Source: Mustelus asterias (lineage: Eukaryota). Taken from it: a DNA stretch of 64,000 nucleotides. The notes under the pieces were generated by a model. That model searched no databases. It was not told the DNA's origin and was given only the letters and a program-made list of their open reading frames with translations. Each line of letters begins with the position of its first letter. The first letter of the stretch is position 1. The DNA lies in NCBI RefSeq assembly GCF_964213995.1, contig NC_135803.1, positions 26,350,001 to 26,414,000 of the forward strand, in the 5' to 3' direction. The translations under genes were made by a program, and so were the position numbers. Below, one piece after another: positions 5,450-61,109 of the stretch.

Positions 5450-7188
5450 TAAGGAGGGAATTGTAGAGTTTATGGCTTAGATGGCAGAAAGCTTGACCAC
5501 CTATTGTTGGATGAAAGAAATGAATGATACCAAAAAGATCAGAGTTAGAAGAACAGAATTCTCAGAAGGTTGTCAGGCTGAAAGAGATTACAGATTTAGA
5601 CATGGGAGTGGCCGTGGAGGCATTTGAACACTAGGGTGAGATTTTTGAATTGAGGCATTGGTAACTGAGGGAGGAAATGGGGAGTCCTTGACTTCAGTCA
5701 GACCATTGAGGTTGGCCTATTGGAGTATGAACTCCCTGATTAAGCATCCCGTTGATGGGCCAGTCAGCGAATCTTTTCCTTGTACTTAACCAGGAGTGTC
5801 AGTTCCTCTGACACCCCCGGAAGTAGACTGCTAACTGCTAGCACTCTATTTACAAACTCTAACAGCAGTACACAAAGGGATTTTAATGAAGGGACTTCTG
5901 CCTCCAAAGAGTTATTACACCTTGTGATGCAGAATCTTTCAGACCAGAAGCTCAGCTCAGGGCCAAATAGGATGCCAGTGATGATAACAATCTGGTTCAG
6001 CCTGACACAGCAGCAAAAGAGGCATTGGAACTTGTGGCTAGGAAAAGCGGTTTGTGATGAGAGCTGGACAATGGCTTCCATCTTCCCAATGTTTAACCGG
6101 AGGACATTTCAACTCATGCAGCACTGGATGTTGGTCAAGAAGGCAAAAACATTTTGTGTGACCACTAATGCGAAAGGGGAAGTAAAGGACAATGAGAAGC
6201 CCAGTGTTAGGGAAACAAAATCCATGCATGGGGATGCAAAAATATAAAAGCCACCATAAAACCCTTCACATCACACAGTGTTTAAAGTATCCAGCCCAAC
6301 TGACCAGTTCCTGGGTTGGCAACCTGTGGGTCATGAGCTATATGCGGCTTATTAAAGACTCACATGTGGTTGTTGACCTTGATTGATCAAACGCACTTTT
6401 TCTCATGATCAATGTTTTAAAAATAGATAACAAAATGTGTTTCTAATTAAAAAGAATATCAGATATCTATATATTTCCTTGGCAATTATTATTTTTAACA
6501 GAACAGCTAGAACTTGTGAAAGTTTTAATCACAAAAATAAAATTCTCCTGAAAACTTGCTTGGATCAAAAGTCATAAAAAGGTACATTGTTTTGCCAGCC
6601 AAAATGACATCACATATTATGGTGTTTATGGCTTCTGTATTGTCAGCTACCCGATCATTTAAATCGCTCACAGACATTGATGGTAACTAAAAGGCTTGTT
6701 TTTGTTTTTTTAAACTTTTATCAACACTGAAATTGAGAGAAAGTATCATTCAATTAACAATATTTTTGTAAAAATCTTTAAAATGGTGTTGATAATCAAA
6801 TGTCCACTTACATTTATATTAATATTTGGATAATTTGGATTAATTTGAATTGTTTATTTATTTAATTAGTCAGCTAGTGTGTGTATTTTTTTGGCCTTTA
6901 CTTTAACAGCAGTTTTTCAATTTTAAAGTGTAAACTAGAAGTGGGCAGCAAAGGAGTCTGGGAAGGGTTTTTATTTTAACTTTAAAAGTCAGTTACCTGG
7001 GAGGTTCCCCCTCAGTAGTAGTTTTTTTTTTCTCTCGGGCCCCTCGCCCTATAAATTGGTGCAGAGGAGATACCCGATCCTCTACACTGGTAGAGGATCC
7101 CACCCTTCCATCCTCCTCTAACCTAATTATAAGTGTGGGGAAGTTTTTTGTTTTTTTTGTTTTCTTTTTTTCTTTTTTCTTGCTGGTA

Positions 7189-8118
7189 ATGGCTTCAGGG
7201 ATGGCAGTTCAGGCAGTATGCTGCATCTCCTGTGGGATGTATGTGGTGAGGAAATCCAGTAGTGTTTCAGGAGATTTTAGTTGTAAGAAGTGCATTAGAT
7301 TGCAGCTTCTGGAGGAGCGTGTAAAGGAGCTGGAGGGGGAGGTAGAGGAACTCCGCATAATTCGGGAGGCGGAGGTGGAAGTTGATAGGAGTTATAGAGA
7401 AATAGTAACTCCTAGAAATGAGGCTTGGGTCAATGCCAGGAGGAGGGGTAAGAAGCAATCGGGAAGACAATCCCCTGGGGCGGTTCCCCTCCATAATAGG
7501 TTTTCGGTGCTGGAGGCTACAGTTGAGGAGGAATCAACTGAGCATAGAGAGCAGATCTCTGGGGGTGAGCTGAGTGAGAAAGCTCAGGTGGTTAGGGGCT
7601 GTAAAAGACTGGGCCTTGTGATTGGGGACTCCACAATTAAGGGGACAGATAGGAGGGTCGGAACTAAAGGTAGGGACTCAGGGTTGGTGTGTTGCCTACC
7701 AGGGGCTGGGGTCCGGGATGTGTCTGACAGGGTATTCAGGACTCTTAGGGGGGAGGGAGATAAACCACAAGTTATTGTACATGTGGGGACACACGACATA
7801 GGGAGGATAGGGGAAGGGGATATTAGGCAGGGATTTATGGAGTTGGGGTGGAAACTAAAGGCCAAGACTGACAGAGTGGTTATCTCTGGACTCTTGCCTG
7901 TACCACGGGATAGTTTAGAGAGGAATAGGGAGAGGGAAGGTTTGAATTCATGGCTGAGGGGATGGTGCAGGAGGGAGGGGTTCAGGTACTTAAGCAATTG
8001 GGGCTCGTACTGGGGAAGGTGTGACCTCTATGAGAAGGATGGTCTACACCTTAATCAGAAGGGGACCAATATCCTGGGGGGTAAATTTGCTAAGGCCATG
8101 CAGGGAGGTTTAAACTGA
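7189..8118 (+). CDS. CR1 LINE ORF1p: Zn-finger/coiled-coil plus SGNH esterase domain (309 aa from ATG 7189)
   Basis: CISC..CKKC zinc motif, heptad repeat LQLLEERVKELEGEVEEL, and SGNH blocks VIGDS, HVGTHD, DGLHLN. Confidence 0.9.
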   Translation: MASGMAVQAVCCISCGMYVVRKSSSVSGDFSCKKCIRLQLLEERVKELEGEVEELRIIREAEVEVDRSYREIVTPRNEAWVNARRRGKKQSGRQSPGAVPLHNRFSVLEATVEEESTEHREQISGGELSEKAQVVRGCKRLGLVIGDSTIKGTDRRVGTKGRDSGLVCCLPGAGVRDVSDRVFRTLRGEGDKPQVIVHVGTHDIGRIGEGDIRQGFMELGWKLKAKTDRVVISGLLPVPRDSLERNREREGLNSWLRGWCRREGFRYLSNWGSYWGRCDLYEKDGLHLNQKGTNILGGKFAKAMQGGLN

Positions 8119-8168
8119 TTCGGGGGGGGGGAGGGATCCTGAGTAGTGGGGCTGAAAGTGAGGGATGC

Positions 8169-10988
8169 ATGGATGGGGACTGCAATGCACGGCATTGCAG
8201 AGGTGGGGTGGAGCAGGGTTTGAAATGTGTATACTTCAATGCCAGGAGTATTCGCAATAAAGTGGGTGAACTTGCAGCGTGGATCAGTACCTGGGACTTC
8301 GATGTTGTGGCTATTTCAGAGACATGGATAGAGCAGGGGCAGGAATGGATGCTGCAGGTCCCGGGGTTCAAATGTTTTAGTCGAAGTAGGGAAGGAGGTA
8401 GAAGAGGGGGAGGGGTAGCATTATTGGTCAGAGATTGTATCACAGTGTCAGAGAGGAGGTTTGATGAGGACTTATCTGTTGAGGTAGTATGGGCGGAGAT
8501 TAGAAATAGGAGAGGAGAGGTCACCCTGTTGGGAGTCTTTTATAGACCTCCTAAAAGTTCTAGAGAGGTTGAGGAAAGGATTGCGGAGTCAATCCTGCTT
8601 AGGAGTGAAAGTAATAGGGCAATTGTTATGGGGGATTTTAACTTGACTAATATTGACTGGAATTGTTATAGCTCTAGCTCGTTAGAGGGGTCAGTTTTTG
8701 TTCAAAGCGTGCAGGAAGGTTTTTTGACTCAGTATGTAGACAGGCCAACTAGAGGTGAGGCTATATTGGATCTGGTGCTGGGAAATGAGCCAGACCAGGT
8801 GCTAGACTTGGAAGTTGGTGTGCATTTTGGTGATAGTGACCACAATTCGGTTACGTTCACCTTAGTGATGGAAAGGGATAGGCTTGAACCTCGGGCCAGT
8901 GGTTTTAGTTGGGGGAAGGGTAATTATGAGGCTATTAGGAGAGAATTAGGAAACATAGGTTGGACTAGGAGATTACAGGGACTGGGAACGTCCGACATGT
9001 GGAGTTTTTTCAAGGAGCAGCTACTGCGAGTCTGTGATAGGTATGTCCCTGTCAGGCAAGGAGGAATTGGTAGGGCTAGGGAACCGTGGTGCACCAAAAA
9101 AGTTTCTTTGTTGGTTAAAAAGAAAAAGGAGGCTTATGTTCGGATGAGACGTGAGCACTCGGGTAGTGCACTAGAAAGCTTTAGATTGGCTAAGAGGGAG
9201 TTGAAGAGCGAGCTTAGAAGGGCTAAAAGGGGACATGAGAAGACTTTGGCGGATAGGGTTAAAGAGAATCCTAAGGCGTTCTATAGGTATGTCAAGAACA
9301 GAAGGTTGGTTAGGGCAAGTTTAGGGCCAGTTATAGATGGCAGAGGGAAGTTATGTGTGGAACCGGAGGAGATTGGTGAAGCATTGAACCAATATTTCTC
9401 TTCGGTGTTCACGCAAGGGGACATGAATATAGCTGAGGAGGACACTGGGTTGCAAGGGAGTAGAATAGACAGTATTACAGTTGATAAGGAGGATGTGCAG
9501 GATATTCTGGAGGGTCTGAAAATAGATAAATCCCCTGGTCCGGATGGGATTTATCCAAGGATTCTCTGGGAGGCAAGAGAAGTGATTGCAGAGCCTCTGG
9601 CTCTGATCTTCAGGTCGTCGTTGGCCTCTGGTATAGTACCAGAAGATTGGAGGTTAGCGAATGTTGTCCCATTGTTTAAGAAGGGGAACAGAGACTTCCC
9701 CGGGAATTATAGACCGGTGAGTCTCACTTCTGTTGTCGGCAAGATGTTGGAAAAAATTATAAGGGATAGGATTTATAGTTATTTGGAGAGTAATGAATTG
9801 ATAGGTGATAGTCAGCATGGTTTTGTGGCAGGTAGGTCGTGCCTTACTAACCTTATTGAGTTTTTTGAGAAAGTGACCAAGGAGGTGGATGGGGGCAAGG
9901 CAGTGGACGTGGTATATATGGATTTTAGTAAGGCGTTTGATAAGGTTCACCATGGTAGGCTTCTGCAGAAAATGCAGATGTATGGGATTGGGGGTGATCT
10001 AGGAAATTGGATCAGGAATTGGCTAGCGGATAGGAAACAGAGGGTGGTGGTTGATAGTAAATATTCATCATGGAGTGCGGTTACAAGTGGTGTACCTCAG
10101 GGATCTGTTTTGGGGCCACTGCTGTTTGTAATATTTATTAATGATCTGGATGAGGGTATAGTTGGGTGGATTAGCAAATTTGCTGATGACACCAAAGTCG
10201 GTGGTGTGGTAGACAGTGAGGAAGGGTGTCGTAGTTTGCAGGAAGACTTAGACAGGTTGCAAAGTTGGGCCGAGAGGTGGCGGATGGAGTTTAATGCGGA
10301 GAAGTGTGAGGTAATTCACTTTGGTAGGAATAACAGATGTGTTGAGTATAGGGCTAACGGGAGGACTTTGAATAGTGTGGAGGAGCAGAGGGATCTAGGT
10401 GTATGTGTGCATAGATCCCTGAAAGTTGGGAATCAAGTAGATAAGGTTGTTAAGAAGGCATATGGTGTCTTGGCGTTTATTGGTAGGGGGATTGAATTTA
10501 GGAGTCGTAGCGTTATGTTGCAACTGTACACAACTCTGGTGCGGCCGCACTTGGAGTACTGTGTGCAGTTCTGGTCCCCACATTACAGGAAGGATGTGGA
10601 GGCTTTGGAGAGGGTGCAGAGGAGGTTTACCAGGATGTTGCCTGGTATGGAGGGGAGATCCTATGAGGAGAGGCTGAGGGATTTGGGATTGTTTTCGCTG
10701 GAAAGGCGGCGGCTAAGAGGGGATCTTATTGAAACATATAAGATGATTAGAGGTTTAGATAGGGTGGATAGTGATAGCCTTTTTCCTCTGATGGAGAAAT
10801 CCAGCACGAGGGGGCATGGCTTTAAATTGAGGGGGGGTAGTTATAGAACCGATGTCAGGGGTAGGTTCTTTACCCAGAGGGTGGTGAGGGATTGGAATGC
10901 CCTGCCAGCATCAGTAGTAAATGCGCCTAGTTTGGGGGCGTTTAAGAGATCCGTAGATAGGTTCATGGACGAAAAGAAATTGGTTTAG
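8169..10988 (+). CDS. CR1 LINE ORF2p: APE endonuclease plus reverse transcriptase (939 aa from ATG 8169; the frame is open from 8094)
   Basis: Endonuclease motifs YFNARS, ISETW, MGDFN, SDH; RT motifs [29 protein letters not shown]. Confidence 0.95.
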   Translation: MDGDCNARHCRGGVEQGLKCVYFNARSIRNKVGELAAWISTWDFDVVAISETWIEQGQEWMLQVPGFKCFSRSREGGRRGGGVALLVRDCITVSERRFDEDLSVEVVWAEIRNRRGEVTLLGVFYRPPKSSREVEERIAESILLRSESNRAIVMGDFNLTNIDWNCYSSSSLEGSVFVQSVQEGFLTQYVDRPTRGEAILDLVLGNEPDQVLDLEVGVHFGDSDHNSVTFTLVMERDRLEPRASGFSWGKGNYEAIRRELGNIGWTRRLQGLGTSDMWSFFKEQLLRVCDRYVPVRQGGIGRAREPWCTKKVSLLVKKKKEAYVRMRREHSGSALESFRLAKRELKSELRRAKRGHEKTLADRVKENPKAFYRYVKNRRLVRASLGPVIDGRGKLCVEPEEIGEALNQYFSSVFTQGDMNIAEEDTGLQGSRIDSITVDKEDVQDILEGLKIDKSPGPDGIYPRILWEAREVIAEPLALIFRSSLASGIVPEDWRLANVVPLFKKGNRDFPGNYRPVSLTSVVGKMLEKIIRDRIYSYLESNELIGDSQHGFVAGRSCLTNLIEFFEKVTKEVDGGKAVDVVYMDFSKAFDKVHHGRLLQKMQMYGIGGDLGNWIRNWLADRKQRVVVDSKYSSWSAVTSGVPQGSVLGPLLFVIFINDLDEGIVGWISKFADDTKVGGVVDSEEGCRSLQEDLDRLQSWAERWRMEFNAEKCEVIHFGRNNRCVEYRANGRTLNSVEEQRDLGVCVHRSLKVGNQVDKVVKKAYGVLAFIGRGIEFRSRSVMLQLYTTLVRPHLEYCVQFWSPHYRKDVEALERVQRRFTRMLPGMEGRSYEERLRDLGLFSLERRRLRGDLIETYKMIRGLDRVDSDSLFPLMEKSSTRGHGFKLRGGSYRTDVRGRFFTQRVVRDWNALPASVVNAPSLGAFKRSVDRFMDEKKLV

Positions 10989-11573
10989 GTTGGAGGGTCA
11001 CAGTTTTTTTTTTTAACTGGTCGGTGCAACATCGTGGGCCGAAGGGCCTGTTCTGCGCTGTAATGTTCTATGTTCTATGTTCTAATACAAATCCATCAGT
11101 GTTCTTTTGTAACCAGTAATGTGCTCTTCACATTTAACCATACTTTTATTTTTGTGTCACTTGCAAATTTTAATATCCTCAAGCCCATTTATATATATAT
11201 TGAGAAGAACAGTGGTACCCAACACTATTTGCTGCGATAATGTTTCTAAATGTGCGAAGATATCTAAGATTTTATTTTATGAACTGCTGGTTAACACTGA
11301 GGACATATAGTGATTATATTAACTGTTTTATTTTGCATTGTTTCAAATTGTTAATACTTCAAGGGACATAATCACAAATCACTATTACAGTTAGGACTAA
11401 CAGGTAGAATCTATCTAGATATGTGAATATAATGATTGCCCCAGATTTTATAGCATGTATCAAATTTCTTTGCTATGAAATATTCTAATTAATTTTTCAT
11501 ATTTTCTTTTGCTACACATTTATTCTACTTGCATCAAAAGGACTACTGCTGTTCTAGTGGGTGTTTGCCAAAG

Positions 11574-14061: not shown

Positions 14062-14231
14062 CAAGTACTTCAGGGATTGATTACTGTTGTTTTCACTTTC
14101 TGCAGTTTGCCAACAGGCTAGAACAAGACTTTAAATTGCATGTACCGTATTCTTATTTATGTACAGTGTTGAAAGTGTTGTTTTAAATTGTACAGTTTTT
14201 CATTTGAAACACATCTTTCTTTTCATTACAG

Positions 14232-15892
14232 GTGACATTTTAAATTTAAAGACCTTTCGCCCTTGGGAATTCAATACCAGCTACCCCAGTCGATCGGTCC
14301 TGTTCCCTCTGGTCACGACAGGCTTCTCCTTCATAGTCCTAAAAACATTGCACAATTCTGGCCATTTTGGTAGCATTCTAAACAGCTACAGTTTGTTGGT
14401 TTTCCCCAGATTCTACCTGACATGCCTGTCCTTTATACTAGACTATTCTGTATACCATTTAGCCTGTCTCTGGGGAACAGATCCATGGCATGCTTTAATA
14501 CTGCTGAGTGGGTCACACGTGATGCTGGTTTTTTACACCAGGACATTTTCAAATGTTATAGAAGGAGTTCTGTTTGCATTACTGCTGCTGTTAGTGGCAA
14601 TGGACACAACACAAGGGCATGTAGCACCACGTCCTAGGAAAAAGGAAAGGAGGAACAATAAACATCTTATTGGGATTGTTTTAGTTTCAGGCTTTTTTAA
14701 TAGACCCACATTCGTTAGTTATGCTTTAGTACCAATGCTCCTGTGGCTTTCCCGTGATCAGAAAGGCACATTTCAATTCAGTTTAAGAACAATATTAAAG
14801 AGATCCTTCGGCATTTTTTCACCTGTAATTGTAACCACTTGCATTTTCATTATTGTGGATACACTATATTTTGGTTCATTGTTTTCTGAAATTGACTGGT
14901 TCTTGAAAGATGGAAATGCTGGACATGAACACATTGTTAATCTAAGCCAACATCTATTTTTAACTCCACTCAATTTTATTCGGTATAACTTGGATCCAGA
15001 AAACCTTTCTACTCATGGGAGGCATCCTTGGTTTACACACCTGACTGTTAATGGGCTTCTGATGTTTGGTGTTCTTCATTTGTCAGCTGTTATAACTGCT
15101 TTTAGAATTATAATCCACAAATGTGTTTGCGCAGGTGGATGTCATGTGCCAAGGAAACAGCAGTTTGAAAAGAAATTACAAACACATTTTCCTTCAGTTA
15201 CTGAAGCTACTCCTTCAGTTGCTGAGTATTTGATTTTGGTTTATTTTGTTCCCTTAATCATCTTGTCCTTATTTAGTCATCAGGAAGCACGGTTTCTTAG
15301 TCCCCTTATTGCACCAGTTGTTATACATGGTGCTTTCAATTATGACGTGTTGAGAGGGAGAACTGTAATTATTGTATTTAACATTTTATGTTCAGTACTT
15401 TTTGGCTGTATGCACCAGGGTGGATTAATTCCTTGTCTGTCTTATTTAGAAAAAGCTTTACATTCAGAGGATCCTATGGCTAACCAGCCTGAGCACAATT
15501 TGATATTTTACCACACCTACATGCCTCCGAGGTATCTCCTAAACATCAGATCAGACCAAGAGTCTATCAAAATCATTGACCTGGGAGGGTCTGATGTTTC
15601 TGTCCTCAATAACACAGTGGATGGGCTACTCGACGATTTATCTTCCAAACACACTGAGCATAACCAAATAAATATCTATATCATTGCACCTGGTACTGTT
15701 GAATACACTATGAAATGTTGTGATTTTCAATGGGTAACTGTTGCATCCTTCTTCCCTCATTTATCTATGGAAGATCCTCCTGAAATTCCTTTACTTTTTT
15801 CTAAAGATGGATTGAACCAACTGAGTCTTTATATTTTCAAGGTGCACAAGAAGTTAAAGATTCTGAATTTTAATGGAACTCTATTTACATAA
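14232..15892 (+). CDS. PIGZ: GPI mannosyltransferase 4, coding exon 2 (total protein 591 aa)
   Basis: Acceptor ttacag|GT completes Gly in phase with exon 1. Multi-TM glycosyltransferase-22 motifs PWEF..PSRS, YTRTFSN, FNRPTF, HQEARFL, HQGG, YHTYMPP, FFPHLSMEDPP. Ends in TAA. Confidence 0.93.
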
Positions 15893-16150: not shown

Positions 16151-18699
16151 ATTGCGACGATGGCTTGAGTTTCCATGAGGATGAAGGGGGTCTCTGACTT
16201 AGCCAAAATGGTGCTGGAGCTCCGATTTCAGAAGTTGCACTCCTGAGCCTGGTACCCACCATTTTTGCCAAGGGGGAATGGGAGTGAGTTGTAGATTGCA
16301 CATCCATGGTTCATGGGGACAGCTACAATATAGGATTAGTGCTACATGACTAATTCAACAATCAATTATTATCACAGTAGGGTGGGAGGTGAGTGCTTTA
16401 AGCTTACAGTTTGACTGACAGCTCCAAATGATAATATTGTTTTTGATGTGGGAGGTTATAAATACAAACGGTTGTCTTCAAATGGGTTAAGTAACTGAAG
16501 GAATTTAAACGCATTGAATAGTTTTTCTCTCAATGAGAGTGTGGTTTTAAAGTGGTCATCAGTAGACATTTAGAACTTGATTTTATTACATCCCAATATG
16601 GCTCCTGAGGTGTGTCCATGGCAGATACTGAATGAGTTGGCAAGGAGGAATAAAGGCAGTGGGTGAGGAGTCATGGGATTGATATGAGTTGGCACTAAGT
16701 TGGCACAGGAGCTATAAAGGACCTTGGAGGATGGGTAGAGAGGCATAAATTGACATGAAGGATATGTGGGACCATGGTGGGTAGGTAGGGGCATAGTTTG
16801 TCCTGGACAGTATGAGGGGGTCACAGAAAGTGGGGAACGAGAGATAGGTTGGCATGGAGGATATGCGGGGGGGGGGGGTGGTTTGGCTTGAGTTAGGATA
16901 GAAATGGCACGAGGAATGTGTGGGAGATGAGGGCTAGAGGGATGTGTTATGATTTATTGGGTTTTTCTTCCAGAGCATCAAGATGTGCCTTTTCACCAGC
17001 CTGCCCCAGCAGGCTCTCTGGCTTCCTCCAAATTCTTCTTTTTGGGAGCAGCGAACTCGACGCCCGTTATTACTGATCCGACTCCACCCCCAGAATGGAA
17101 ATTAGAAGATCCGCTGAGTTGGTTAGTGACATTGGGAATTTTTCCTGACCCTGAACTCCCAAATTGGGAAAACAAATTTGGCCCTATAACCCTAATTCCA
17201 GCTCTTTCACCAAGGGGAAACAACATTTCAGCATTTACCCTGTCAAGCCTCCTCAGAATTTCTTCAGTTTCTTTGAGGTCACCTCTCACTCTTCTAAACT
17301 GGAGGTTTATTTTTGAAAACTTTATAATAGTTAATTCTGTGGGGTATTTGTGAGCGTACTTCTTTTTGCTGATATACAAGAATGGGAGATATCCAGCAAG
17401 AATTGAGAGACATCACAGAGATCTCAGAGGCTTGTGGGGGTTGGAGGAGGCTACAAAGTCTTCTAATACAATCTAATTTGATGGAGCTTTTCTAAATTTA
17501 AAACAATTGCTAAACTTAGCTCTATGCTCTGATCACAGCTAGCTCGGCTCCAAATGGCTTTTATATGACCACTATGGAAAGGATTCAAATAGTAAAACAT
17601 GATTAGCGGCGAAAGATGGAAATTGTAGTTTATCAATTTACTTCACAGACCCCTGTTAATATTGGCAGATTCTGAGGGAAAAAAAAGTGAGTCCTAAACC
17701 AATATAGGTTTCTACATTTAGTTTATTGATTTATATCATAGTCTTATTAAGGATTGGAGAAATGACTGTCTTTGCAGAGAAAGTCTCCAGTAGAAATGTA
17801 CATTTGCAATATAGCACATTTTAGTAAGACATTCAGTGGCAGATTCGTCCTTTATCCTTATGCAATTACCTAACAATGTGTGTTCTTTCTTATACCTGTT
17901 AATCTGAGTGCAAAGTTACTAAAATTGTCTAAATAACCATGTTCTATTGCTCTTTACATTCTAGATAAGATGCTGAAACATTGTTATGTAATCTCGATAC
18001 AACTTGTCACGGCATTTGTTGAACTGCCGCATTAACTTGTGGTATTATGCATGTCAGTTGGAAAATTTGATTAAATCATAAGGATAACAGTCACCAACTA
18101 TATTGTCTGCATTTGATACAACGAACCACCAGCATAAGTAGACACCTCTTAGTACCAATAAACATCTGAAACTCAAACATATTTCCCAAGTATTGTGCAG
18201 GAACTGGTTGATTTTTGATAGACTATAAAGGGTGACATTGGGTAGCAACTAATATAATTGTAGAACCATAGCAAATTACAACACACAAGGAGGTTGTTTA
18301 GTCCATTGTGCCCGTGCTGACTTTTTGAAAGAGCTGTCATGCTTTGTCCCACATCACATTTTTTGTCTGTAATCCACTAAATTCGTAATCCTAAAGCATC
18401 TATTCAATTTGCTTTCAAAATTATTTATGGAACCAGCTTCTATGATTTCAAGTAGAGCAATCCAGACCTTAACAACTCTCTAAATGAAAAATAAAACTTT
18501 CTTCCTCGAGATGATTCTGTGCTATTGATATGTTTTATGTTTGAGGAGGACAGCTTTAAGATGCAGTGTTTTGTTGCAAGCAGTCAGTTTGTCAGAAAGG
18601 AATGTAGCGGATGCTGGAAAGAAGGATAATTATTCATTTTAGCCATGTAAGTGTTTACTTAAACAAAAGCTCATTAAACCTTCTGTTATCAAATACTGA

Positions 18700-20660: not shown

Positions 20661-20969
20661 TCATTTCTGCTTCTTGTGGCCCGGAGCCTCCCTCGGGCCC
20701 TCCTTCAGCTCCCGGGCCCAGCTGTCCCTCAGGCGGGCCGCCCACTGGCTCAGCCCGCCCAGCTGGCGGGGCAGCGCGATCCGCTCCCACAGCTTGCGGA
20801 CGGCGCCGGAGCGGCGGAGGCGCTCGGCCGCCTCCCGGCCGCCCAGCTCCAGGCGGCTGGCCAGGGAGACGGTGATGCGGGCCGCCTGGCGGATGGGCTG
20901 CGTCTCGGAGAGCTTCTCCACCAGCCGCGCGTTATTCACCAGCGACTGCAGCAGCCGACCGAGCACCAT
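20661..20969 (-). CDS. NCBP2AS2: NCBP2 antisense 2 (HIAR) small protein, single exon, 102 aa
   Basis: MVLGRLLQSLVNNARLVEKLSETQPIRQAARIT resembles the human NCBP2AS2 N-terminus. Perfect Kozak GCCGCCATGG; head-to-head with NCBP2; AATAAA on the minus strand at 20152-20157. Confidence 0.88.
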   Translation of the reverse strand: MVLGRLLQSLVNNARLVEKLSETQPIRQAARITVSLASRLELGGREAAERLRRSGAVRKLWERIALPRQLGGLSQWAARLRDSWARELKEGPREAPGHKKQK

Positions 20970-21361
20970 GGCGGCAGCGGGACGGGGCTCTCTCACCTCT
21001 GACCCCTCACCCACTGTCGGCCATTCCCCCCTCCCTCCCTCCCATCTCCATGGAAACGGTTCGACCGCCTCGAATCATTACTAACGATTCTCCTTCCCTC
21101 CTTGTTTTCCGCTCACATTTTTATCTCGTTATTAACGACACAAAGAAGAAACACCGATCGCGCCATCTTGTTGGATTCTCCGGTCGGGCGATCATCCTCC
21201 GGTTCCAGCCGGGATAGAACCGGAACTGTTCTCACGGGCTCTGGTAGCGGCCCGGATGGATTTAAGGGCGGGGAACGTGGGACGGAAATATGGCCCGGTT
21301 TCCGGTCCGTGTAGGCGACTTCCGGTTCCGGTTAGCTGAGCGCTGCTTGTCTCCCGGCGTC
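20970..21361. promoter_or_regulatory. CpG-island bidirectional promoter shared by NCBP2AS2 and NCBP2
   Basis: 392 bp between divergent ATGs, CpG-rich, with a YY1-type CGCCATCTTG (21161-21170) and ETS/GABP-type CGGAA/TTCCG motifs including tandem ACTTCCGGTTCCGG at ~21318. Confidence 0.8.
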
Positions 21362-29239: not shown

Positions 29240-30785
29240 AACATGGTCACCCCACAGTTCAAGGAAGTGCAACCAGAGAGGGAATGGATGACGACCAGTC
29301 AGAAGAAAGAGGCAGGCAGGTTGTCAGGAAAGCCCCAGGGTGCATCTCACTCAAGAACCGATTTTTCTTGTGTGTTGGAAATCGGCGAGAGTGACGGTTC
29401 CTCTGGGGAGTGCAGCCAGAGTCACGTTCACAGCACTGTGGGTGGCTAAGCTGCACAAGTGGGTAGGAGTAAGAGTGGAAGAGCAATAGTGGGAGGAGAC
29501 TCAATAGCGAGAGTGCAGACAGGTGTTTCTGCAGCTGCTGTTGTGATTCCAGGATGGTGTGTTGCCTCGCTGGTGCCAGGGTCAAGGATGTCACCGAACA
29601 GCTACAGCGTATTCTGAAAGGGGAGGGTGAACAGTCAGAGTTTCTGGTTTCCATTTGTACTAATGAGGTAGGTACAAAGAGGGATGAGGACCTGCAACAG
29701 GAATTTAGGGAGCAAGATCTCAGATTGAATAGCAAGGTTGTGATCTCTGGATTACTCCTGATGCAACATGCTAATGAGTATAGGAGGATAGAGCAGATGA
29801 ATACATGACTCAAGAAACAGTGCAGGGAGGAGGGCTTTAGTTTCCTGGGTAACTGGGTCCATTTCTGGGGAATGTGGGATCTGTACAAGTTGAATGGGTA
29901 GCACCTGAAACGGAACAGGACCAACATCCGTGTGGGGAGGTTTACTAAGTGCTTTTGGTGGGGGTGAACTTTAAACTAATTTGACAGGGATGGGATATGG
30001 CCTGGAGGTACAGTACAGTACAGTATACAATTATAGATAAAAAATCAAGCCAGTCTGGAAGGCAGAGTGAAAACAGCCATGTTAAGGCACAAGGGAATAT
30101 GGCAAGGCTTGATGGCATTTATCTTAATGCAAGGAATCTTATGGGTAGGGCAGATGAATTAAGATTGTTGATTAACACATGGGAGTGTGATATTATTGCT
30201 ATTATGGAGACATGATTGAGGGAGCTGAACTGGCAGCTCAATGTCCTGGGATATAGAATCTTCATGCAAGACAGGGAGGGTGTAAAAGAAGTAGGGTTGC
30301 ATTATTAATCAAGGAGTCATGTTTAAGTTAAAAGTTTAAAGTAGGCTTACATTAACACTGCAATGAAGTTACTGTGAAAATCCCCGAGTCGTCACACTCC
30401 AGCGCCTGTTCAGGTACACTGAGGGAGAATTTAGCATAGCCAATGCACCTAACCAGCACGTCTTTCAGACTGTGGGAGGAAACTGGAGCACCCGGAGGAA
30501 ACCCATGTAGACATGGGGAGAATGTGCAGACACCCCACAGATAGTGAGCCAAGCTGAAAATCAAACCCAGGTCCCCAGCGCTGTGAAGCAGCTGTGCTTG
30601 CCACTGTGCTACCATGGCACCCATGGCAATTAATGCAGTGAGGAGGGACGATAACTTGGCAGACTCCTCAACTGAGGGCATAGGGGTAGAACTGAAAAAC
30701 AAAAATGGAGCAATCACATTGCTGGGCATGTACTATAGGCCCCCGAACAGTCAGGGAAAGTTAGAAGAGCAGATATGTAGGTAAT
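29240..30785 (+). mobile_element. Decayed CR1 LINE (ORF1 esterase plus start of ORF2 endonuclease), interrupted by a SINE
   Basis: MVCCLAGARVKDVTEQLQRILKGEGEQ..TNEVG..VVISGLL and IYLNARNL..WECDIIAIMET, with stops and frameshifts. Confidence 0.85.
30323..30620 (-). mobile_element. tRNA-derived SINE, second subfamily, nested in the CR1 copy
   Basis: Reverse complement of the 28480-28766 type. Confidence 0.8.
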
Positions 30786-32868: not shown

Positions 32869-33655
32869 ATTTGATTTTATTATCGTCACATAGATTAGTA
32901 CAGTGAAAAGTATTGTTTCTTGCGTGCTACACAAAGCACACCATTCAGAGAGGAGAGAATGCAGAATGTAGTGTTACAGTCATAGCTAGGGTGTAGAAAA
33001 AGATCAACTTAATGCGAGGTAGGTCCATTCAAAAGTCTGATAGCAGCAGGGAAGAAGCTGTTCTCGAGTCAGTTGGTACGTGACCTCACACTTGTATCTT
33101 TGTCCCGACGGAAGATAGAAGAAAGTACGTCTTGTGTGCGTGGGTTCCTTAATTATGCTGTGGGAAGTGTAGACAAGATGGCAGGCTGGTTTGTGTGATA
33201 CTACATTCATGACCTTTTGTAGTTTCTTGCGGTCTTGGGCAGAGCAGGAGCCATACCAAGCTGTGATACAACCAGAAAGAATGCTTTCTACGGTGCCTCT
33301 GTAAAAGTTGGAGAGAGTCGTAGCTGACATGCCAAATTTCCTTAGTCTTCTGAGAAAGTAGAGGTGTTGGTGGGGTTTCTTAACTATAGTGTCAGCATGG
33401 GGGTATCAGGACAAGTTGTTGGTCTTTTGGACACCTAAAGACTTGAAGCTCTCGACCATTTCTACAATATCCCCATTGATGTAGACAGGGGCAAATTCTC
33501 CACTATGCTTCCTGAAGGAGATTGTTGATATTGAGGGACAGATTATTGTCACCGCACGAGTTCAACAGATTCTCTATCTCTTTCCTGTACTTGGCTCGTC
33601 ATCATTTGAGATCCGACCCACTATGGTGGTGTCATCAGCAAACTTGAAAATCTGC
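32869..33655 (-). mobile_element. Rex1/Babar-like LINE 3' fragment (RT C-terminus and tail)
   Basis: FKFADDTT-like motif and MSATTLSNFYRGTVESILSGCITAWYGSCSAQDRKKLQKV. A tail similar to gtgacaataaatcaaatc also occurs at ~22280-22450 (+). Confidence 0.75.
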
Positions 33656-47464: not shown

Positions 47465-47745
47465 CGTTCATAAGATTATAGGAGCAGAATTAGGCCGTTC
47501 GGCCCATCGACTCTGCTCTGCCCTTCGGCCGTGGCTGATATGCTTCCCATCCCCATTATCCTTCAACCCATTACCAATTAAAAATCTGTAACTTCTTAAA
47601 TTTACTCACTGTCCCAGCATCCACCGCACTTTGGGGCAGCGAATTCCACAGATTCACAACCTTTTGGGAGAAGTAGTTCCTCCTCAACTCTGTTTTAAAT
47701 TTGCTACCCCTTATCCTAAGACTATGACCTCTCGTCCTAGTGCAG
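47465..47745 (-). mobile_element. CR1 LINE 3'-end fragment
   Basis: TRTRGHSLRIRGSKFKTELRRNYFSQKVVNLWNSLPQSAVDAG is a CR1 ORF2 C-terminus. Confidence 0.85.
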
Positions 47746-48329
47746 TGCATGAGTGAGAGAGAACAGGTCAAGTCCAAAATAAAGGAATATCCACGATTAG
47801 ACTGTTTAAAAATCTGTATATATTAGTTAAACATCTTTCAGGTTGGTTATTACAATACGGAAGTCTGTAACAATGTGCTGAGTTATGCTCAAGGTTCATC
47901 CTTTTAAATACACATATCTAGAAGGATCTAAACCAAAAAGGGCAAAATTCTCTTTAAAGCAATTTGGCTGAAAAACATGGGAGTGCTAGTTCAGATTAAC
48001 TATGCAAACAACTTGGCAGGGGTTGTCAGTTTTAGTACAGGGGTTGGTTTGGGTCAGAGCAATCACCTATTTTTGAATGCGACAGGAGGCTTTCTAGTCT
48101 GATGTAAAGACATGCTTCCACAGGGACTGGTCAAGTCAGTCACACATGTGGAAGACAAAAGCTTTATGCAGAACTGTGCAGTAGACAACATTATAATTTG
48201 GAAGGAAAGGTACGGCGCACCCCATGGTATTCACCACCACATCAATAGCTTCCACAACAATTCCTAAAATATGCTGGACTTGTAAAAATCCTGCTGCTTG
48301 TCACAATGCACTCTCTCTCAATGACTCAC

Positions 48330-52489: not shown

Positions 52490-55400
52490 AACCACAAAAA
52501 AATAGACCATATGGTCCATCAGGCCTGCTCTATCATTCAACATAATCATGGCTGACCTTGGGCCTTCAATTCCATTTTCTACCTGGTTATCATATCCCTC
52601 AACTCCCTGCAAAACCAAAAATCTGTGTATCTCAGCTTTAAATGTATTCAACAATAGAGAATCCACAACTCTCTGGGGTAGAGAATTCTAAAGATTCACA
52701 ACCCTTTGAGTGAAGTGAGCTCTCCTCATCTCAGTCTTAAATGATTGGCCTCTTATTCTGAGACTCTGCGCCTGTGCTTTAGACTGGAGGAAACAACCTC
52801 AACATCTACCCTTATCAGGCTCCTCAGAATTTTGCAGGTTTCAATGGGATTGACTCTCATTCTTCTAAATTGCAGAGGTACAAGCCGAATTCAGTTGGCC
52901 TCTCATTATTGTTATTCCCAGGGAACAATCTAATAAATCTTTGCTGTACTACTTCCAATGCAAATATAGTCACCTTCCTTAAGAGCTGAGAACAAAACTG
53001 CACAGTGCTCCAGGTGTGGTCTCACCAAAGCCCTGAACAAGTGGAAGGAATAAGGAATGACTTCCTTATTCTTGTATTCCAATCCCCTTGCAATAAAGGC
53101 CAACATGCCATTTGACTTTGGATTGCCTGCTACACCTGCATGCTAACTTTGTGTTCCTTGTACAAGCACACCCAAGTCTCTCTGAACATTTAACACTTAT
53201 AAGTTTCACCCCTTTTGAAAATGCTCTGCTTTTCTATTATGATCAATGTGAATAACTTCACACTTCCCTAATATGATACTCCATCTGCCATCTTGTTGAC
53301 TACTCATCTAAACTTCTATATCTCCTTGCAGCCTCTGTATCCTCCCACAGCTTACCTCCCCACCTAGCTTGGCATAATCAAACTTTGATGCATTACCCTG
53401 TCTCTTCAACTAAGTAATTAACATATTGTAAATAGCCAAGGCTCCAGCATTGATCCTTGCTGCACTCCACTATTCACTGCCAACTTGAAAAAGCCCCGTT
53501 TATGCCCACTTTCTGCTTTTGAATTAACGAATCTTTTATCTTTGTTAAAATACTGCTTCCAAATCAACAAGCCCTTATTTTGTCTTTTAATCTTTTGTAT
53601 GGCACCTTGTCAAATTTTTTTGTGGAAATCTAGATATACTGCATCTACCGGTTCCCTTTTACCTACCATTGTTTAACCGACCTCTCTCTCCCTCCTTTCT
53701 CTATAAGTGGCGTAACATTTTCCAACTTTCAATCTAATGGGAATGTTCCCAAATCTGTGAAATTCTGGAAAATCATAGCCAGCAACCCACTATCTGAGAA
53801 CCCTCGGGTGTAGGCCATCAAGTTTTGGGGACTAATTGGACTTCCCACCCCCCCCCCCCCCGCCTCATTTCTGCCAATAATAATTTATCTCTGCTGAAAT
53901 TAATTCTCACTTATGTTAGCCCCGAGATTAAAAGCAAATTACTGCAGATGCTGGAATCGGAAACCAAACGAGAAAATGGTGGACAAAACGCTTTGACAAA
54001 GGGTCATCTGGACTCGAAACATCAGCTCTTTTCTCTCCTTACAGATGCTGCCAGACCTGCTGAGATTTTCCACCATTTTCTCTTTTGGTTTTAGCCCCTA
54101 GATTACCCACTATGTCTGGTATGAAACTTGTCTTCTACTCTGAAGACAGACAAAATATTTGTTCAATGCCTCTATTTCCTCATTCACGTGATAATTTCTC
54201 CTGTCCTTGCTTCTAATTTACTTTAGCTACTCTCTTCCTATTTATATTCTAATAAAAGCACATACAATCTGTTTTTATATTCCTGGCCATTTACTCTCAT
54301 TCTATTTCTTTCCCCTTTGTATCAACATTTTGGCAGCCCTCTGACTTCTAAAACACGAAGAGTTTTAACAACACCAGGTTAAAACTCTTACTGTGTTTAC
54401 CCCAGTGCAACGCCGGCATCTCCACATTCTAAAACACTCCCAATCCTCAGACCTACTACTGTTTTTTGCAACATTGCGAGCCTCTTCTTTTAATCTAATA
54501 CTATCCTTAACTTCCTGAGTGAGCTTTGTGCATTCAAATAAAATAACCTTTCAATTGTTTACATCTACTCCCTTCAATATCCTTATCCATCAGTGTACAA
54601 ATGTTGTTAAACTCTGTCCTGTCCCACGCCGCTTGTCTTTACCCACATTGTTATACTGTTGCGATGCCTCGACTTTTGTCTTTGGATTTCTAAACCTTCC
54701 TTTGCTTGACCTCTCCCCCTACCATCATCTCTTAGTTAAACTGGCTACCACCTCTTAGTTTAAAGCCCTGTCACAGCCCTCGTGATATGACTGGCCAGGA
54801 CATTGGTCCTAACCCAGTTCAAGTGGAGCCCATCCCAATGGGGTAGCTCATTCTTCCCAGAGTATGGGATGTCAGTGCCCCATGAAATCAAAACCACTTC
54901 TTCCCAAACCACTCATTCAGCCACACATTTAATTCTTTAATCTGCTTGACCCTACGTTAATTTGTGTGTAATTCACGTAACAATCTAGAGATGATTACCT
55001 TCGAGATTCTACATTTGAATTTGGTCCTTTGATCTTCAAATTATTTATATGTTCTACCTATGTCATTGGTTCCCACTTGGACCATGATAATTGGGACCCC
55101 CCGCCCCACCATCCCACTGCCTTCCCACTCTCTCCAGCCGGAATTAGGCAGGTAACACCAACTTTGAAGCTCCCAGTTACAGCTACAGAGAACAATATCT
55201 ATTCCCCTGACTATATGGTTTTCTTTCACGACCACATTCCGCTTTAGTCCCCCTACTAGAATGGCATCCCTCGCCATGTTGCCATAGTCAGTCCGCTGAT
55301 CTCCCTTGTGGCCCTTCTCCTCATAGGTAGCAAGTAACTTATACCTGTTGGACCAAGTCAGGAGCTGAGCCTGGTTCCCTTTACCCGCCTGACTCTCAGT

Positions 55401-56639: not shown

Positions 56640-58015
56640 GATTCATAGACGTTTCTGGCTCAGGAGAAGATCATTCAGCCCATCGTGTCCATGCCAGTCA
56701 GCAAAGATCAGATTACACGAATCCCATTTTCCAGTGCTTGGCCCATAGCCCTAGTTGTTATGACAACGCAAGTGAATATCTAAATACTTCTTAAATGTTA
56801 CAAGAGTTTCTGATTCAACCACTCTTTCAGATGGTGAGTTCCAGACTCCCACCATCCTCTGGGTGAAAAGCTCTCTCCTCAATTCCCCTCTTAGCCTTCT
56901 AACCCTTACCTTAAATGCCCCCTGGCTACTGACCCTTCTACTATTGGAAAAATCCTATTCCACCCAAGCTATGCCCCTCAAAACCTTATACACCTCTATC
57001 TGGTCTCCGTTCAACTTTCGCTGCTCCAAGGAAAATATGGTGAGTAGAACTGCACACAGTACTCCAGTTGCGGCCTCACCAGCATTTTATACAATTCCAA
57101 CATTAGATCCTTGGTTTTATATTCTATAGTTCTGCCAATGAAGAAGAGTATCCGTATGCCTTAACAACCTCATCTACTTGAACTGCTGTCCTTAGGGACC
57201 GGTGTACTTGTACACCAAGCTCTCTCATTTCATCTCTCTCTCTTAGTATATTCCCATTTATTGTGCATTTCCTACAACTGCTTGACCTCCCTAAATGCAT
57301 TACCTCACACTTCTCTATGTTAAAATCCATCTGTCATTTTACTGCTCACTCCACCAATCCATCAATCTGGTTTTGTAGATTACAGCTATCCTCTACACTG
57401 TCCACTACTCGGCCAATCTTAGTGTCATCTGTGCAAATTTTCCAATCGTATCCCCCACATTCACATCCAAATCATTAGCATATAACACAAACAGCAACGG
57501 TCCCAACACTGAGCCCTGTGGAACGCCACTTGAAACATCCATCGACATTACCCTTTGTTTCCTGTTACTAAGCCAACTTTTGATCTAGTGTACCACATTA
57601 CCCTGCATCCCATGGGCTTTTACTTTATTGACCAATCTACCATTTGAGACCATGCTAAAATCCATATACACAGCATCCACTGTACCACCTTCGACAACCC
57701 TTCTTCTCACTTCATCAAAGAATTCAATCAAGTTTGAGGTAAAACCTTTCTTTAACAAATCCATGCTGACCATCCCTGACAAGTCGATGCTTTCCGACGT
57801 GAAACTTAATTCTCTCAAGGTTGATTCTACTGTTTTGCCCACCACCAATGTAAGATTAACTCTTCCTGGTTCACACACAGATTACCTATATGGTCCCAAT
57901 TGGCCTTACTCTTCCCCTAGTTATTCTCTTGTTCCTTATATATTTAAAAAACCCCTTTGGGCTTTCCTTTATTCTATCCAACTAAACTTTTTCATGCACT
58001 CTCAGCTTTCCTAAT
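56640..58015 (-). mobile_element. Decayed CR1 LINE ORF2 (RT) fragment
   Basis: NLIEFFDEV..VDAVYMDFS and MDFNIEKCEVMHLGRS..ELGVQVHRSL. Confidence 0.85.
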
Positions 58016-58903
58016 TCCCTTTTACAAATTTCCTTTGTAATTTTAGTCTTTTCCTAATTTCCTTTCCCTGTTATACAAAAAAATTGACATGACCAACTGT
58101 GAGAGTCTTTGCTTCTGCTCTTTTAAAAATATTTCGTTGAAACAATTTTGTAGGGAGTAACCGAGAGGAGGTACTGAGATGAGGAGGCCCATTTGAAGCT
58201 CTCAATTAAAGTTCCAGGTTGTACCCGAAGTATCAATGCAACTTCTCTCAGTTTGCCTCCCATTTTACATTGCCTTTAGCTTTAATCAGTAAAACGAATG
58301 TTTGTTAGAAGGTTTTCAAGTAACAAGCAAGGTATCAAAGCCCTGGAATTTCTTAATGAGGTTTCTGAGAGAATTGCACAATGCGATTCACCAAGAAAGA
58401 TACTGCCCATGAGAACAGGACACGGGGTGAACCCGTTTCATCACATTGTGGATGTAGGTGGAGTAAATCTCCTTCGACCTTCGCCACTTCTTCCTGTCCT
58501 TTGTTACCTTGCATTCTAATTGTATTCTAACAGTTGTCTGGGGAACTACAGATGAGGAATGCAACATGAACTGCCTACGTCTGACAGCTAAGCCAATTGG
58601 AGGGAAGTGGAACCAACCAAATCATACGGAAATAATTAATTTTATACGTTTTTTTTAAACCACTGCTTAAACAGTACAATGTACCTTTTGTTCAAAAAAA
58701 GGTGGTCATGGGAGCACTTTCTTTTCAAACTGACATATTCCTCCTACTCCATTTGCACCTTATCTACAGAACCATTGTGCCAAATAGAGTACAAGCTGGA
58801 TTGCTGGTTAATTTCTATATTGCTCAAATTATTCCATTTAAAAAACAGCGCACGATTATCTTAGAAAGAAATAGAAATGGTTTTCTTAAACCAGCAACTG
58901 TAC

Positions 58904-60389
58904 CATGAATACAGGATATTAATGGTTCACTGGCAACAGAGCAGGTCTGAGATTCATTCTCCTTTCCCTTTTCGGCCTGACTCCTAGCTGGCAGTTCAGT
59001 CCTCACCGATGTGTGCTCAGCTTGTTCCTTGGTAGATCTATAGTAAATGTGGTCCATCAGCTGTGGTTGAAGCACAGGACATGGCTCACCACTTTGCAAA
59101 CAGACCGACTGGCCAGATTGATTAAGAGAAGCGCTTGTGTGTCTACATGATACAGGGCTCGGGTCCATTATGGCACTGATGACCTGCATCTCCCCATCAC
59201 AGACTGGGGTTTGGTTTGAAAGTCTCCCCTGCGCGAGGCTAAACAACTGGGATGTCCCATCAGCTTTCGACCACTTATCTGCACCCACAAGCTGGTTGGC
59301 ACCAGCATCCAATCCAAGAGGGCTCGAGGGAGGGAACACTGTTTCTGAGTTTTCATCGACTGTTTGATTATGTTCAACAAGCTTTTCACTTGAATGAAAA
59401 AAATGAGGCAAGGCCTCCTGCGGTTGCGAACTGTCCATCCTTTCATCAAAGGGCAAAAGTGAAACTTCGCAGCAATTAGTCAGGCAGGAATTGTCTTGTT
59501 TCATTGTCTCTGATGTACCACTATTCTGATCTGAACCAAACTGCACATTCTGGTTGGAATCTTCACCTTTGGGAGATGGCAGAGAAGATATATCACATGC
59601 CATTTTATCCAAACATTGGCCAGCCTTTTTTGGATTCAAGGATTGCACCCAATTTAACTTCTCTTGCTTTTGAGTGGTAGATTTTTTCCGCCTGTTTTGA
59701 TTATTAAATATTCTATAATGGAAGCTAAAGAGAGAATGTTTCCTGTAGAGCAGGCAGATTTTGTGCCCTTTCAGCTGCCGCTTTGTCTTGCGAGGTAAGT
59801 TATTAGGCAAGGAATCTTTGTTCCCTTGGAAGTCTATTCTTTTGTAACCATTTAATAGCTTCTGATTTATAATCCTGTCTTGAAGCCCACTGTTGTTTCG
59901 CTGGGATTTGGGGCAAGTTACCGTGGCAGGTGTAGTTAGATTTCTCGAGACTGCTGTACAATATAAAAGTGTCGATTTGCAGTCAGAATCTGGGGCTACA
60001 GCATTGCTGTTCCAATCTTCACAAATTTCATGTCCCTTACTTTCTCCTTCCTCATGGGGCACCAAGGTTGTTGTACACGTTTCCTCGGTTGGTATGTCAT
60101 TGAGGCTCGAGGTCAACAATGCTGTTTCCTTCTGTGCCGCCTTCAAATACGCGATGTCTTTCACAGATCTGCACGGTTGAAAATCCGAAAGCTCCTTTCT
60201 TAGCACGGACCTGACCCGTTTTTTCCTGATGGACAGCCACAGACGCTGCTTTTGTTGATAATAAAACTGTCTTTGGGAGCACAACGAGCCTTCCAGTTGC
60301 TTCCATTTGCTGTGGTGGGATTGCAGTTGCTCTCTAAGGTTTGCCCTCAAGAATCTTCTATAGCATTTGCCATCGCTGTGCTCCTTCAT
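58904..60389 (-). CDS. SENP5: SENP5 first coding exon (large, divergent N-terminal region); total protein 749 aa
   Basis: Acceptor ttttctcacag at ~60405, ATG at 60389 (MKEHSDGK), 1486 nt open, donor CATG|GTACAG in phase 1 joining the next exon (IHAFLDEF). Confidence 0.85.
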
Positions 60390-61109
60390 AGTCTGACAGT
60401 TCGGCTGTGAGAAAACATTAAGACAAAACTTTAAAGTACATATTGATAGCAATTTCTTAAATACCAGAACTGCGAGTTTAAACATCTTATTTTGAAAAAG
60501 AAAGCTAACTTGGTGGCCTTTCGAAATCTGGGATCGGAATTGGAATTCAGCCCAAACTGATGGGCAAAGATCTCATTTCATTCCTTTGTCGGTTCCATGG
60601 ATTCTACAGGAAACATGCATTGATAGTCCTAACCCAACAATAAGAACCCACAGCACAAAATTTTAAAATAAACTGGAGGTAATAGTCACACAGTTTACAG
60701 AATGGTCAATCTGGGAAGGGAAAGCTTTACTTGTAGTGTCTTTTGAGGTTTGGAAGCGAAATTGAGGAGATCAGTTCCCCAATCTCATTTATTCATTATC
60801 TCCACCCTATCTCCACATCTCACCCATTATGCCTACTGTTTTCCTTCCTAGAGAGCAGGTATACAGCTGCTTCCGTCAACTACATTCTTTGAAAGTTGCA
60901 GAGCGTTGTAAGCTTCAGTTTTCTTCCATTCCAATTGGAAAGCAAGTTGCCGTTTCTCATACTTTCAAGGAACTCACGACTTCCCTGAAAAAATGTATGG
61001 CTTGTCATCGGGAGAACTCTGTTAAACCACTGTGCTAAGTGCACTAGTAATGGTTAATAACTACAGTTGCACTAGAAATTAACACCATGAAAAATCCTGT
61101 TCAATGAAA

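Follow-up and report, generated by a model that had tools for sequence, protein, structure and literature searches.

A deeply conserved, apparent recoding signal at the ORF1–ORF2 junction of esterase-type CR1 retrotransposons

Introduction

How do the bicistronic RNAs of long interspersed elements (LINEs) give rise to their second protein, ORF2p? The route is an open question, and it can be addressed at the junction between the two open reading frames (ORFs) of a CR1 element from Mustelus asterias. This intact, young, esterase-type CR1 LINE lies in a stretch of 64,000 nucleotides (nt), referred to here as the window (assembly GCF_964213995.1, contig NC_135803.1, positions 26,350,001 to 26,414,000, forward strand). 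The last sense codons of its ORF1 are GGT TTA AAC, followed by the stop TGA, which places the heptamer T_TTA_AAC in the X_XXY_YYZ phase of a slippery site. A sequence-only reading of the window had proposed that −1 programmed ribosomal frameshifting at this heptamer fuses ORF1 to ORF2, stimulated by a downstream G-quadruplex (G4), and had contrasted this with other LINEs. Here we compare the junction across related copies, families, and proteins.

The comparison points to a recoding signal in esterase-type CR1 LINEs that is real and deeply conserved, and we consider it very probable that CR1 ORF2 is reached by −1 frameshifting on U_UUA_AAC at the end of ORF1—the heptamer is conserved by nucleotide, the −1 phase is fixed over varied linkers, and some young families lack an AUG. 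In the mechanism that we infer, termination and release of ORF1p (309 amino acids, aa) would be the usual outcome; on a minority of ribosomes tRNA-Leu and tRNA-Asn would slip back by one base, and translation would continue into ORF2. The slip would yield a 1266-aa esterase-linker-endonuclease-reverse transcriptase (RT) fusion with the junction ...G-G-L-N/L-I-R-G-G..., and a short G-rich motif 11–20 nt downstream, the G-box, may stimulate it. Frameshifting would thereby fix a Gag/Gag-Pol-like ratio of the two products, and the fusion would tether the enzyme to ORF1p multimers.

The CR1 Element of the Window

The features of the element, and of two older copies in the window, are collected in Table 1. 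The 5' boundary is placed by the longest matches to other family copies, which start at 6829 (three copies) and 6856 (two copies). ORF1 carries CxxC pairs, a likely coiled-coil stretch, an SGNH/GDSL esterase, and the C-terminal end Gly-Leu-Asn-stop. It matches Pfam Lipase_GDSL_2 (PF13472, E 1e-7), and a profile of 23 ORF1s matches the ORF1-encoded esterase of PDB entry 4c1b (E 2e-37), which is described as the ZfL2-1 ORF1 esterase (PMC3905857). The −1 frame opens after the TAA at 8091–8093, runs from stop to stop over 8094–10988, and contains the YFNARS and ETW motifs of an APE endonuclease and the FADD motif of an RT, with Pfam matches to Exo_endo_phos (PF03372/PF14529) and RVT_1 (PF00078). 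These positions agree with the sequence-only reading, as do the uninterrupted passage of the −1 frame into ORF2, the length of the predicted fusion (recomputed as 309 + 957 aa), the ATG at 8169, and the G-runs after the heptamer (G10 at 8122–8131, GGG at 8133–35, GGGG at 8148–51, GGG at 8162–64, and GGGG at 8175–78). The ATG lies in the linker of the window copy and is not conserved across families.

Table 1. Coordinates of the CR1 features in the window
Feature	Position	Strand	Remarks
5' untranslated region (UTR) of young CR1 copy	6830..7188	+	5' boundary approximate
ORF1, 309 aa	7189..8118	+	starts ATG 7189, stop TGA 8116–8118
Slippery heptamer T_TTA_AAC	8109..8115	+	X_XXY_YYZ phase, immediately 5' of ORF1 stop
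ORF1 stop TGA and remainder of 10-nt spacer	8116..8125	+	length kept, sequence variable
G-box (here GGGGGG-A-GGG), +11 to +20, candidate 3' stimulator	8126..8135	+	conserved
−1 frame, 959 codons: linker, APE endonuclease, RT	8109..10988	+	
3' UTR, short inverted repeat 11036–11049, (ATGTTCT)n tail 11063–11084	10989..11084	+	
Heptamer and TAA of old broken CR1 copy 2	29970..29979	+	−1 phase, one stop
Heptamer and TAA of old broken CR1 copy 3	54755..54764	−	frame breaks both sides, phase unreadable

The family of the window copy, here called family A, is very young; all 150 scored matches to a 68-aa piece of its ORF1 are 100% identical. Its short 3' UTR ends in a microsatellite tail, without poly(A), and the same 3' end is found in loci L273, L285, and L294. 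The sense strand of the element (7189–10988) is very strongly purine- and G-biased, with 1319 G and 497 C in 3800 nt and a GC skew of 0.45; G-runs are therefore common, and G4 predictions need care. T_TTA_AAC is the only phased X_XXY_YYZ site in ORF1, and two more such sites lie within ORF2.

The sequence-only reading had also reported TTTAAAC with a TAA stop in two diverged copies, and both junctions are present. In copy 2, whose ORF1 remnant spans 29314–29964, the −1 phase with one intervening stop stands as well; position 29997, which had been taken for the endonuclease remnant, is a linker ATG, and the endonuclease match begins at about 30108. Further decayed CR1 ORF2 fragments, all on the minus strand, lie at 56778–58053, 52616–53648, 47592–47777, and 17191–17307.

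Conservation of the Heptamer

ORF1 queries collected 247 loci from the M. asterias genome (3.7 Gb) and from metagenome and genome contigs. With the last six ORF1 residues excluded from the anchors, 207 loci could be placed (36 have no anchor and 4 end at the junction); this set includes window copies 2 and 3 and some likely duplicates. TTTAAAC stands at the projected ORF1 end in 190 of the 207. When the copies are condensed to 20 units of shark and bird type (7 families plus 13 singletons; of 22 singletons, nine were dropped for a shifted stop or a short locus), each heptamer position is conserved in 19–20 of the 20 units. For comparison, the final 110 codons of ORF1 include 18 further conserved columns, in which the commonest codon is used by only 39–82% of 20 representatives (39–68% for Leu columns, 58% for Asn); the terminal 20/20 of this control set is circular and was not used, as the representatives were picked with the heptamer, and one of them, L185, duplicates L159.

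The residue that precedes Leu-Asn (LN) has seven identities (A, S, T, G, C, R, or D). In the window element, TTA accounts for 14 of 111 Leu codons and AAC for 9 of 41 Asn codons, and the third base is T in 31% of codons; at these frequencies the chance of the heptamer is about 1% per independent lineage, even if Leu-Asn is fixed. By these comparisons, conservation of the heptamer exceeds what the protein would need and appears to act at the nucleotide level.

The first 30 loci from the M. asterias genome all have the heptamer; junction length keeps the −1 frame in 20 of them, and the sole difference in the other 10 is the length of the G-run. The ORF1 stop abuts the heptamer in nearly all copies, with TAG or TAA families in the majority. 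Five copies of family F1 from the same genome (L228–L231 and L233) have GAG in place of the stop after TTTAAAC; ORF1 continues for about 30 codons in L228–L230, of which L228 and L230 also have an open −1 frame. All five are located on small contigs, and they may have been duplicated from a single mutated copy instead of forming an active lineage.

Reading Phase, Linkers, and Start Codons

Both the heptamer and an endonuclease anchor are present in 179 copies, which divide into 131 in the −1 phase, 28 in the 0 phase, and 20 in the +1 phase; the path from heptamer to endonuclease is stop-free in 114 of the 131. The −1 phase is modal in all seven multi-copy clusters, though their linker lengths differ. 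Stop-free linkers measure 110, 116, 122, 137, 152, 155, 173, 182, 233, 236, 263, 272, 290, and 365 nt, with a further 134 nt in the young family Y. All 19 listed linkers have stops in both other frames; the list was chosen as open in −1 and is informative only for the lengths and the other frames.

None of the 14 in-phase copies of family F5 has an AUG ahead of the endonuclease, and most copies of F0 and F1 lack one as well. Where AUGs do occur they are not homologous between families, and the positions in families A and F2 are unrelated.

Held-out sets, whose matches were selected on ORF1 alone, give similar junctions. Among 20 long stretches, 19 could be anchored; all 19 have the heptamer and 18 the −1 phase. 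Family Y has 9 of 18 copies open for 966–968 codons from the heptamer, and no Met precedes the endonuclease Asn in any of the 17 in-phase copies (in 15 the first one comes 78 codons after it), so that an AUG start would remove the first endonuclease motifs. Twenty-five shorter loci include 22 that could be anchored, 20 with the heptamer, and 20 in the −1 phase. A final set of 15 loci has 10 that could be anchored, 7 with the heptamer at its projected place, and 4 of 6 in the −1 phase.

The bird-type loci and cross-species DNA come from metagenome contigs of bird-like ORF1 type. These ORF1s are mostly 43–74% identical to named bird proteins and 28–37% identical to shark or ray proteins, and they share the same junction. 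The window ORF1 is 28–33% identical to bird-type ORF1 proteins (alignment A1), and its ORF2 is 45% identical to those of bird-type loci L095 and L096 (over 919 aa for L096). In L095 and L096 the open frame that starts at the heptamer extends over 1006 and 953 codons, respectively.

Homologous Proteins and the Wider Clade

The closest named homologues of ORF1 come from sharks and rays. Of 154 homologous proteins examined, 116 reach the ORF1 end, and 100 of these end in LN, among them named proteins of sharks, rays, and birds. When 1.84 billion representatives were searched with a profile, the best 150 matches contained 145 new proteins, and the end could be scored in 73 of them: LN in 44, QGN in 7, KN in 1, a continuation into an FKL linker in 1, and some other end in 20. 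U_UUA_AAC, G_GGA_AAC, and A_AAA_AAC would encode LN, GN after Gln, and KN, respectively, and are accordingly the heptamers predicted from these protein ends; all three are among the four heptamers named as most shifty in the available text of PMC5009743. A broader picture is possible, though we hold it only tentatively: jawed-vertebrate esterase-type CR1s, from sharks to birds, and a wider clade would make RT solely as a frameshift ORF1p-ORF2p fusion, with a trans-acting protein on a linear G-box (10-nt spacer), a G-rich analogue of the C-rich arterivirus motif, and with the heptamer swapped among these three forms in distant lineages.

A few sequences depart from the usual arrangement. P0031, named from Hypanus sabinus, reads in frame from ORF1 through the FKL linker into the endonuclease, and the database protein P0194 reads in frame from ORF1 into the same linker; both are probably mutated copies or gene models. 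Locus L232 (G000:C6:90752908-90753177) has its ORF1 match within a 785-aa open frame and might represent a copy in which ORF1 and ORF2 are naturally fused in frame. Annotated long fusion proteins were also searched for; there were two matches, neither of them a CR1 fusion, which is weak evidence either way. No related loci were found in viral contigs. Prokaryote contigs gave one fragment of CR1 ORF1 (L132, on a Providencia contig), and a CR1 ORF1 sequence is deposited as a Pseudomonas aeruginosa protein (P0011); host-DNA contamination is the most likely source of both.

The Downstream G-Box

Downstream of the heptamer, conservation is confined to a short G-rich box. G is conserved at +11 to +15 in 15–19 of the 20 units, at +18 in 17, and at +19 in 19, and no position from +20 to +60 is conserved above 12 of 20. 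The box is 9–10 nt long and follows the heptamer at a fixed spacer of 10 nt. The residue encoded just before it varies, which suggests a nucleotide-level constraint, and the box is a candidate 3' stimulator of the slip.

The sequence-only reading had proposed that a G4 extending to 8178 plays this role, and the comparison does not bear this out. Conservation ends by +20, family Y has only G4-A-G-T-GGG at the site, and four G3 tracts occur in 2 of 18 representatives with loops of 1–12 nt and in 1 of 18 with loops of 1–7 nt; we thus rejected a four-tract G4 as the conserved stimulator. A weak two-tier G4 pattern is seen in 12 of 18 representatives. According to the available text of PMC3919603, −1 shifting at UUUAAAC can be stimulated by G4s, for which the optimum spacer is 6–8 nt, so a G4 role in family A is possible.

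Other partners for the box were sought as well. A hairpin is predicted for 8094–8200 of the window (z −3.1), which begins at the stop codon and is family-specific. Stems that enclose the G-box beat swapped-arm controls overall (p about 0.001), but convincingly in just 4 of 21 junctions, with a weak signal in the others. No shared best site was found for a long-range partner of the G-box; among readable sequences, a C-tract about 635 nt upstream is CCC-CTN in six of the seven shark-type and neither of the two bird-type ones, and it tracks a Pro-Leu peptide motif. The G-box is more probably a protein-binding site or a hairpin loop than a four-tract G4, and it might act as a linear stimulator when bound by a protein.

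Frameshifting Weighed Against Other Routes to ORF2

The comparative evidence for the −1 shift proposed in the sequence-only reading is strong, comprising the nucleotide-level conservation of the heptamer (190 of 207 copies), the fixed −1 phase over linkers of many lengths, and the AUG-less young families; several observations, however, weigh against it. Related units share ancestry, so the counts overstate independence. The heptamer is lacking in 17 of the 207 anchored copies and 48 of the 179 phased copies are out of phase, both of which we read as decay, and among the 73 distant representatives 28 have an end other than LN. No stable fold is found at +6 to +75 in any of 18 representatives (z −1.14 to +1.34), and for stems around the G-box the native pairing outdoes almost every swap in no more than 4 of 21 junctions (A, L034, L102, and L108). 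An AUG upstream of the endonuclease is kept in 29 of 30 copies of family F2, and ATG 8169 is kept in all 20 in-phase copies of family A. The G-run of family A adds a further difficulty: a frame-breaking length (G9, G11, or G12) occurs in 12 of 43 distinct copies that diverge by about 2 substitutions per kb, a high frame loss for an obligatorily translated run.

The G-run variants themselves do not form a lineage as far as we can see. No exclusive substitution common to the G11 copies was found, so they look like recurrent slips; a G11 source lineage was sought in family A and not found, though one small branch has two G11 copies and one G10 copy.

The rival that survives best, though we think it unlikely, is an AUG-less termination-reinitiation, in which ribosomes would resume translation in the −1 frame, at the stop or close to it, and make a free ORF2p, with the heptamer and G-box as the restart signal. 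It predicts the fixed phase and open linker just as well as frameshifting does, which counts against our preference, and the nearly constant adjacency of ORF1 stop and heptamer fits it. It has precedent too: the available text of PMC5009743 considers L1 ORF2 to start independently of AUG, and that of PMC2881922 has SART1 and L1 ORF2 translation require the translation of ORF1. What termination-reinitiation leaves unexplained are the exact in-phase X_XXY_YYZ letters and the LN/GN/KN pattern of protein ends. Moreover, the first −1 codon overlapping the ORF1 stop is CUG in the window family but CUA in the TAG and TAA families, which are the majority, and CUA is a poor start codon.

Initiation or reinitiation at ATG 8169, with the heptamer vestigial or kept for the Leu-Asn end of the esterase, is in our judgment very improbable. 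The constancy of this ATG within family A speaks for it, as do two family A copies (L293 and L312) in which the G-run has slipped upstream of ATG 8169 and ORF2 is intact; bird-type L092, L094, L095, L096, and L099 also carry a linker AUG. Against it, AUG positions are not homologous, and family Y and most copies of F0, F1, and F5 lack one; codon-level conservation of the heptamer speaks against a mere need for Leu-Asn, and the frame upstream of the AUG remains open back to the heptamer. ATG 8169 could serve family A as a backup start.

A fusion at the RNA level, through a single base added by polymerase slippage or a splice to the AG of a TAG stop, is highly improbable: the family A G-run does slip, and P0031 and P0194 do read from ORF1 into the linker, but the T3 and A3 runs are short for polymerase slippage, the G-run lies after the stop so that slips there cannot fuse the frames, TGA and TAA families offer no AG acceptor at the stop, and the two proteins are more simply mutated copies or gene models.

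Comparison with Known Systems

Ribosomal −1 frameshifting on the heptamer would give CR1 several parallels, some of them viral. Coronavirus infectious bronchitis virus shifts on the identical U_UUA_AAC heptamer in the same phase (PMC5009743, available text), and retroviral gag-pol, like CR1, places a structural protein first and the enzyme in the −1 frame. Unlike viral −1 frameshift sites, CR1 has no conserved pseudoknot or hairpin at 5–8 nt, and the host of the site is a non-LTR (long terminal repeat) element. The register of the G-box recalls an arterivirus, PRRSV, whose motif CCCANCUCC, 11 nt 3' of the shift site, is bound by nsp1beta and PCBP according to the available text of PMC5009743. 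Both are linear motifs that start 11 nt after the shift site; the CR1 box is G-rich whereas the viral motif is C-rich, and the likeness is positional only.

Among retrotransposons, mammalian L1 and silkworm SART1 share with CR1 a bicistronic LINE RNA, and their ORF2 depends on ORF1 translation. It is described as reached by reinitiation or unconventional initiation rather than by frameshifting—AUG-independent in the portions of PMC5009743 available, reinitiation-like in those of PMC2881922. The sequence-only reading nevertheless overdraws its contrast with other LINEs, because APE-type non-LTR elements of Dictyostelium have already been said to need a −1 shift: a figure legend in the review PMC5911963 has TRE5-A and TRE3-A require −1 frameshifting for ORF2, as proposed here for the window CR1; the available text of PMC5006619 adds nothing further on it. 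These elements are amoebal, and their ORF1 has no assigned function, in contrast to the CR1 esterase.

For CR1 we found no such statement. Full-text literature searches gave no link between CR1 and frameshifting; they did not cover the original CR1 papers, so a prior mention is possible. In their available portions, PMC13343379, PMC4316615, PMC11835228, and 10.1101/788562 make no mention of an ORF2 frameshift for CR1. The descriptions of canonical vertebrate CR1 in the first two have the same two ORFs, with an esterase ORF1, an APE and RT ORF2, and a microsatellite tail, and are, in those portions, silent on how ORF2 is translated. The tail repeat differs between elements: GATTCTAT in bird-type L096, as against (ATGTTCT)n in the window. 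Chondrichthyan L2 elements are reported without ORF1.

Other Features of the Window

Several ORFs lie outside the CR1 copies. A long exon-like ORF at 14135–15892 (plus strand) matches Pfam Glyco_transf_22 (Alg9-like mannosyltransferase, E 1e-47), and we take it to be a PIGZ-like GPI (glycosylphosphatidylinositol) mannosyltransferase. Two minus-strand ORFs, of 137 aa (20661–21074) and 582 aa (58824–60572), have no Pfam match; in our estimation the first resembles NCBP2AS2/HIAR and the second a large exon of a SENP5-like gene, and a PIGZ-NCBP2-SENP5 synteny block would presumably fit all three. A fragment at 33004–33405 (minus strand) matches Pfam ALKBH8_N, a model that often matches the C-terminus of Rex1/Babar-type LINE ORF2.

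Implications

CR1-group elements dominate the retrotransposons of most vertebrates (PMC13343379, in its available text), and frameshifting at the junction would change how these elements are read. If the proposal is true, the start of CR1 ORF2 has so far been drawn wrongly, and the CR1 enzyme would be a Gag-Pol-like fusion that carries a membrane-binding esterase and a multimerising domain. ORF1p would then gain a direct role in RT delivery. Intact ORF2s that lack an AUG would be explained, the counting of intact elements would change, and designs of CR1 retrotransposition assays would have to retain the ORF1-ORF2 junction. The junction would also add to the known −1 sites one that is natural, very old, and unconventional in its stimulator.

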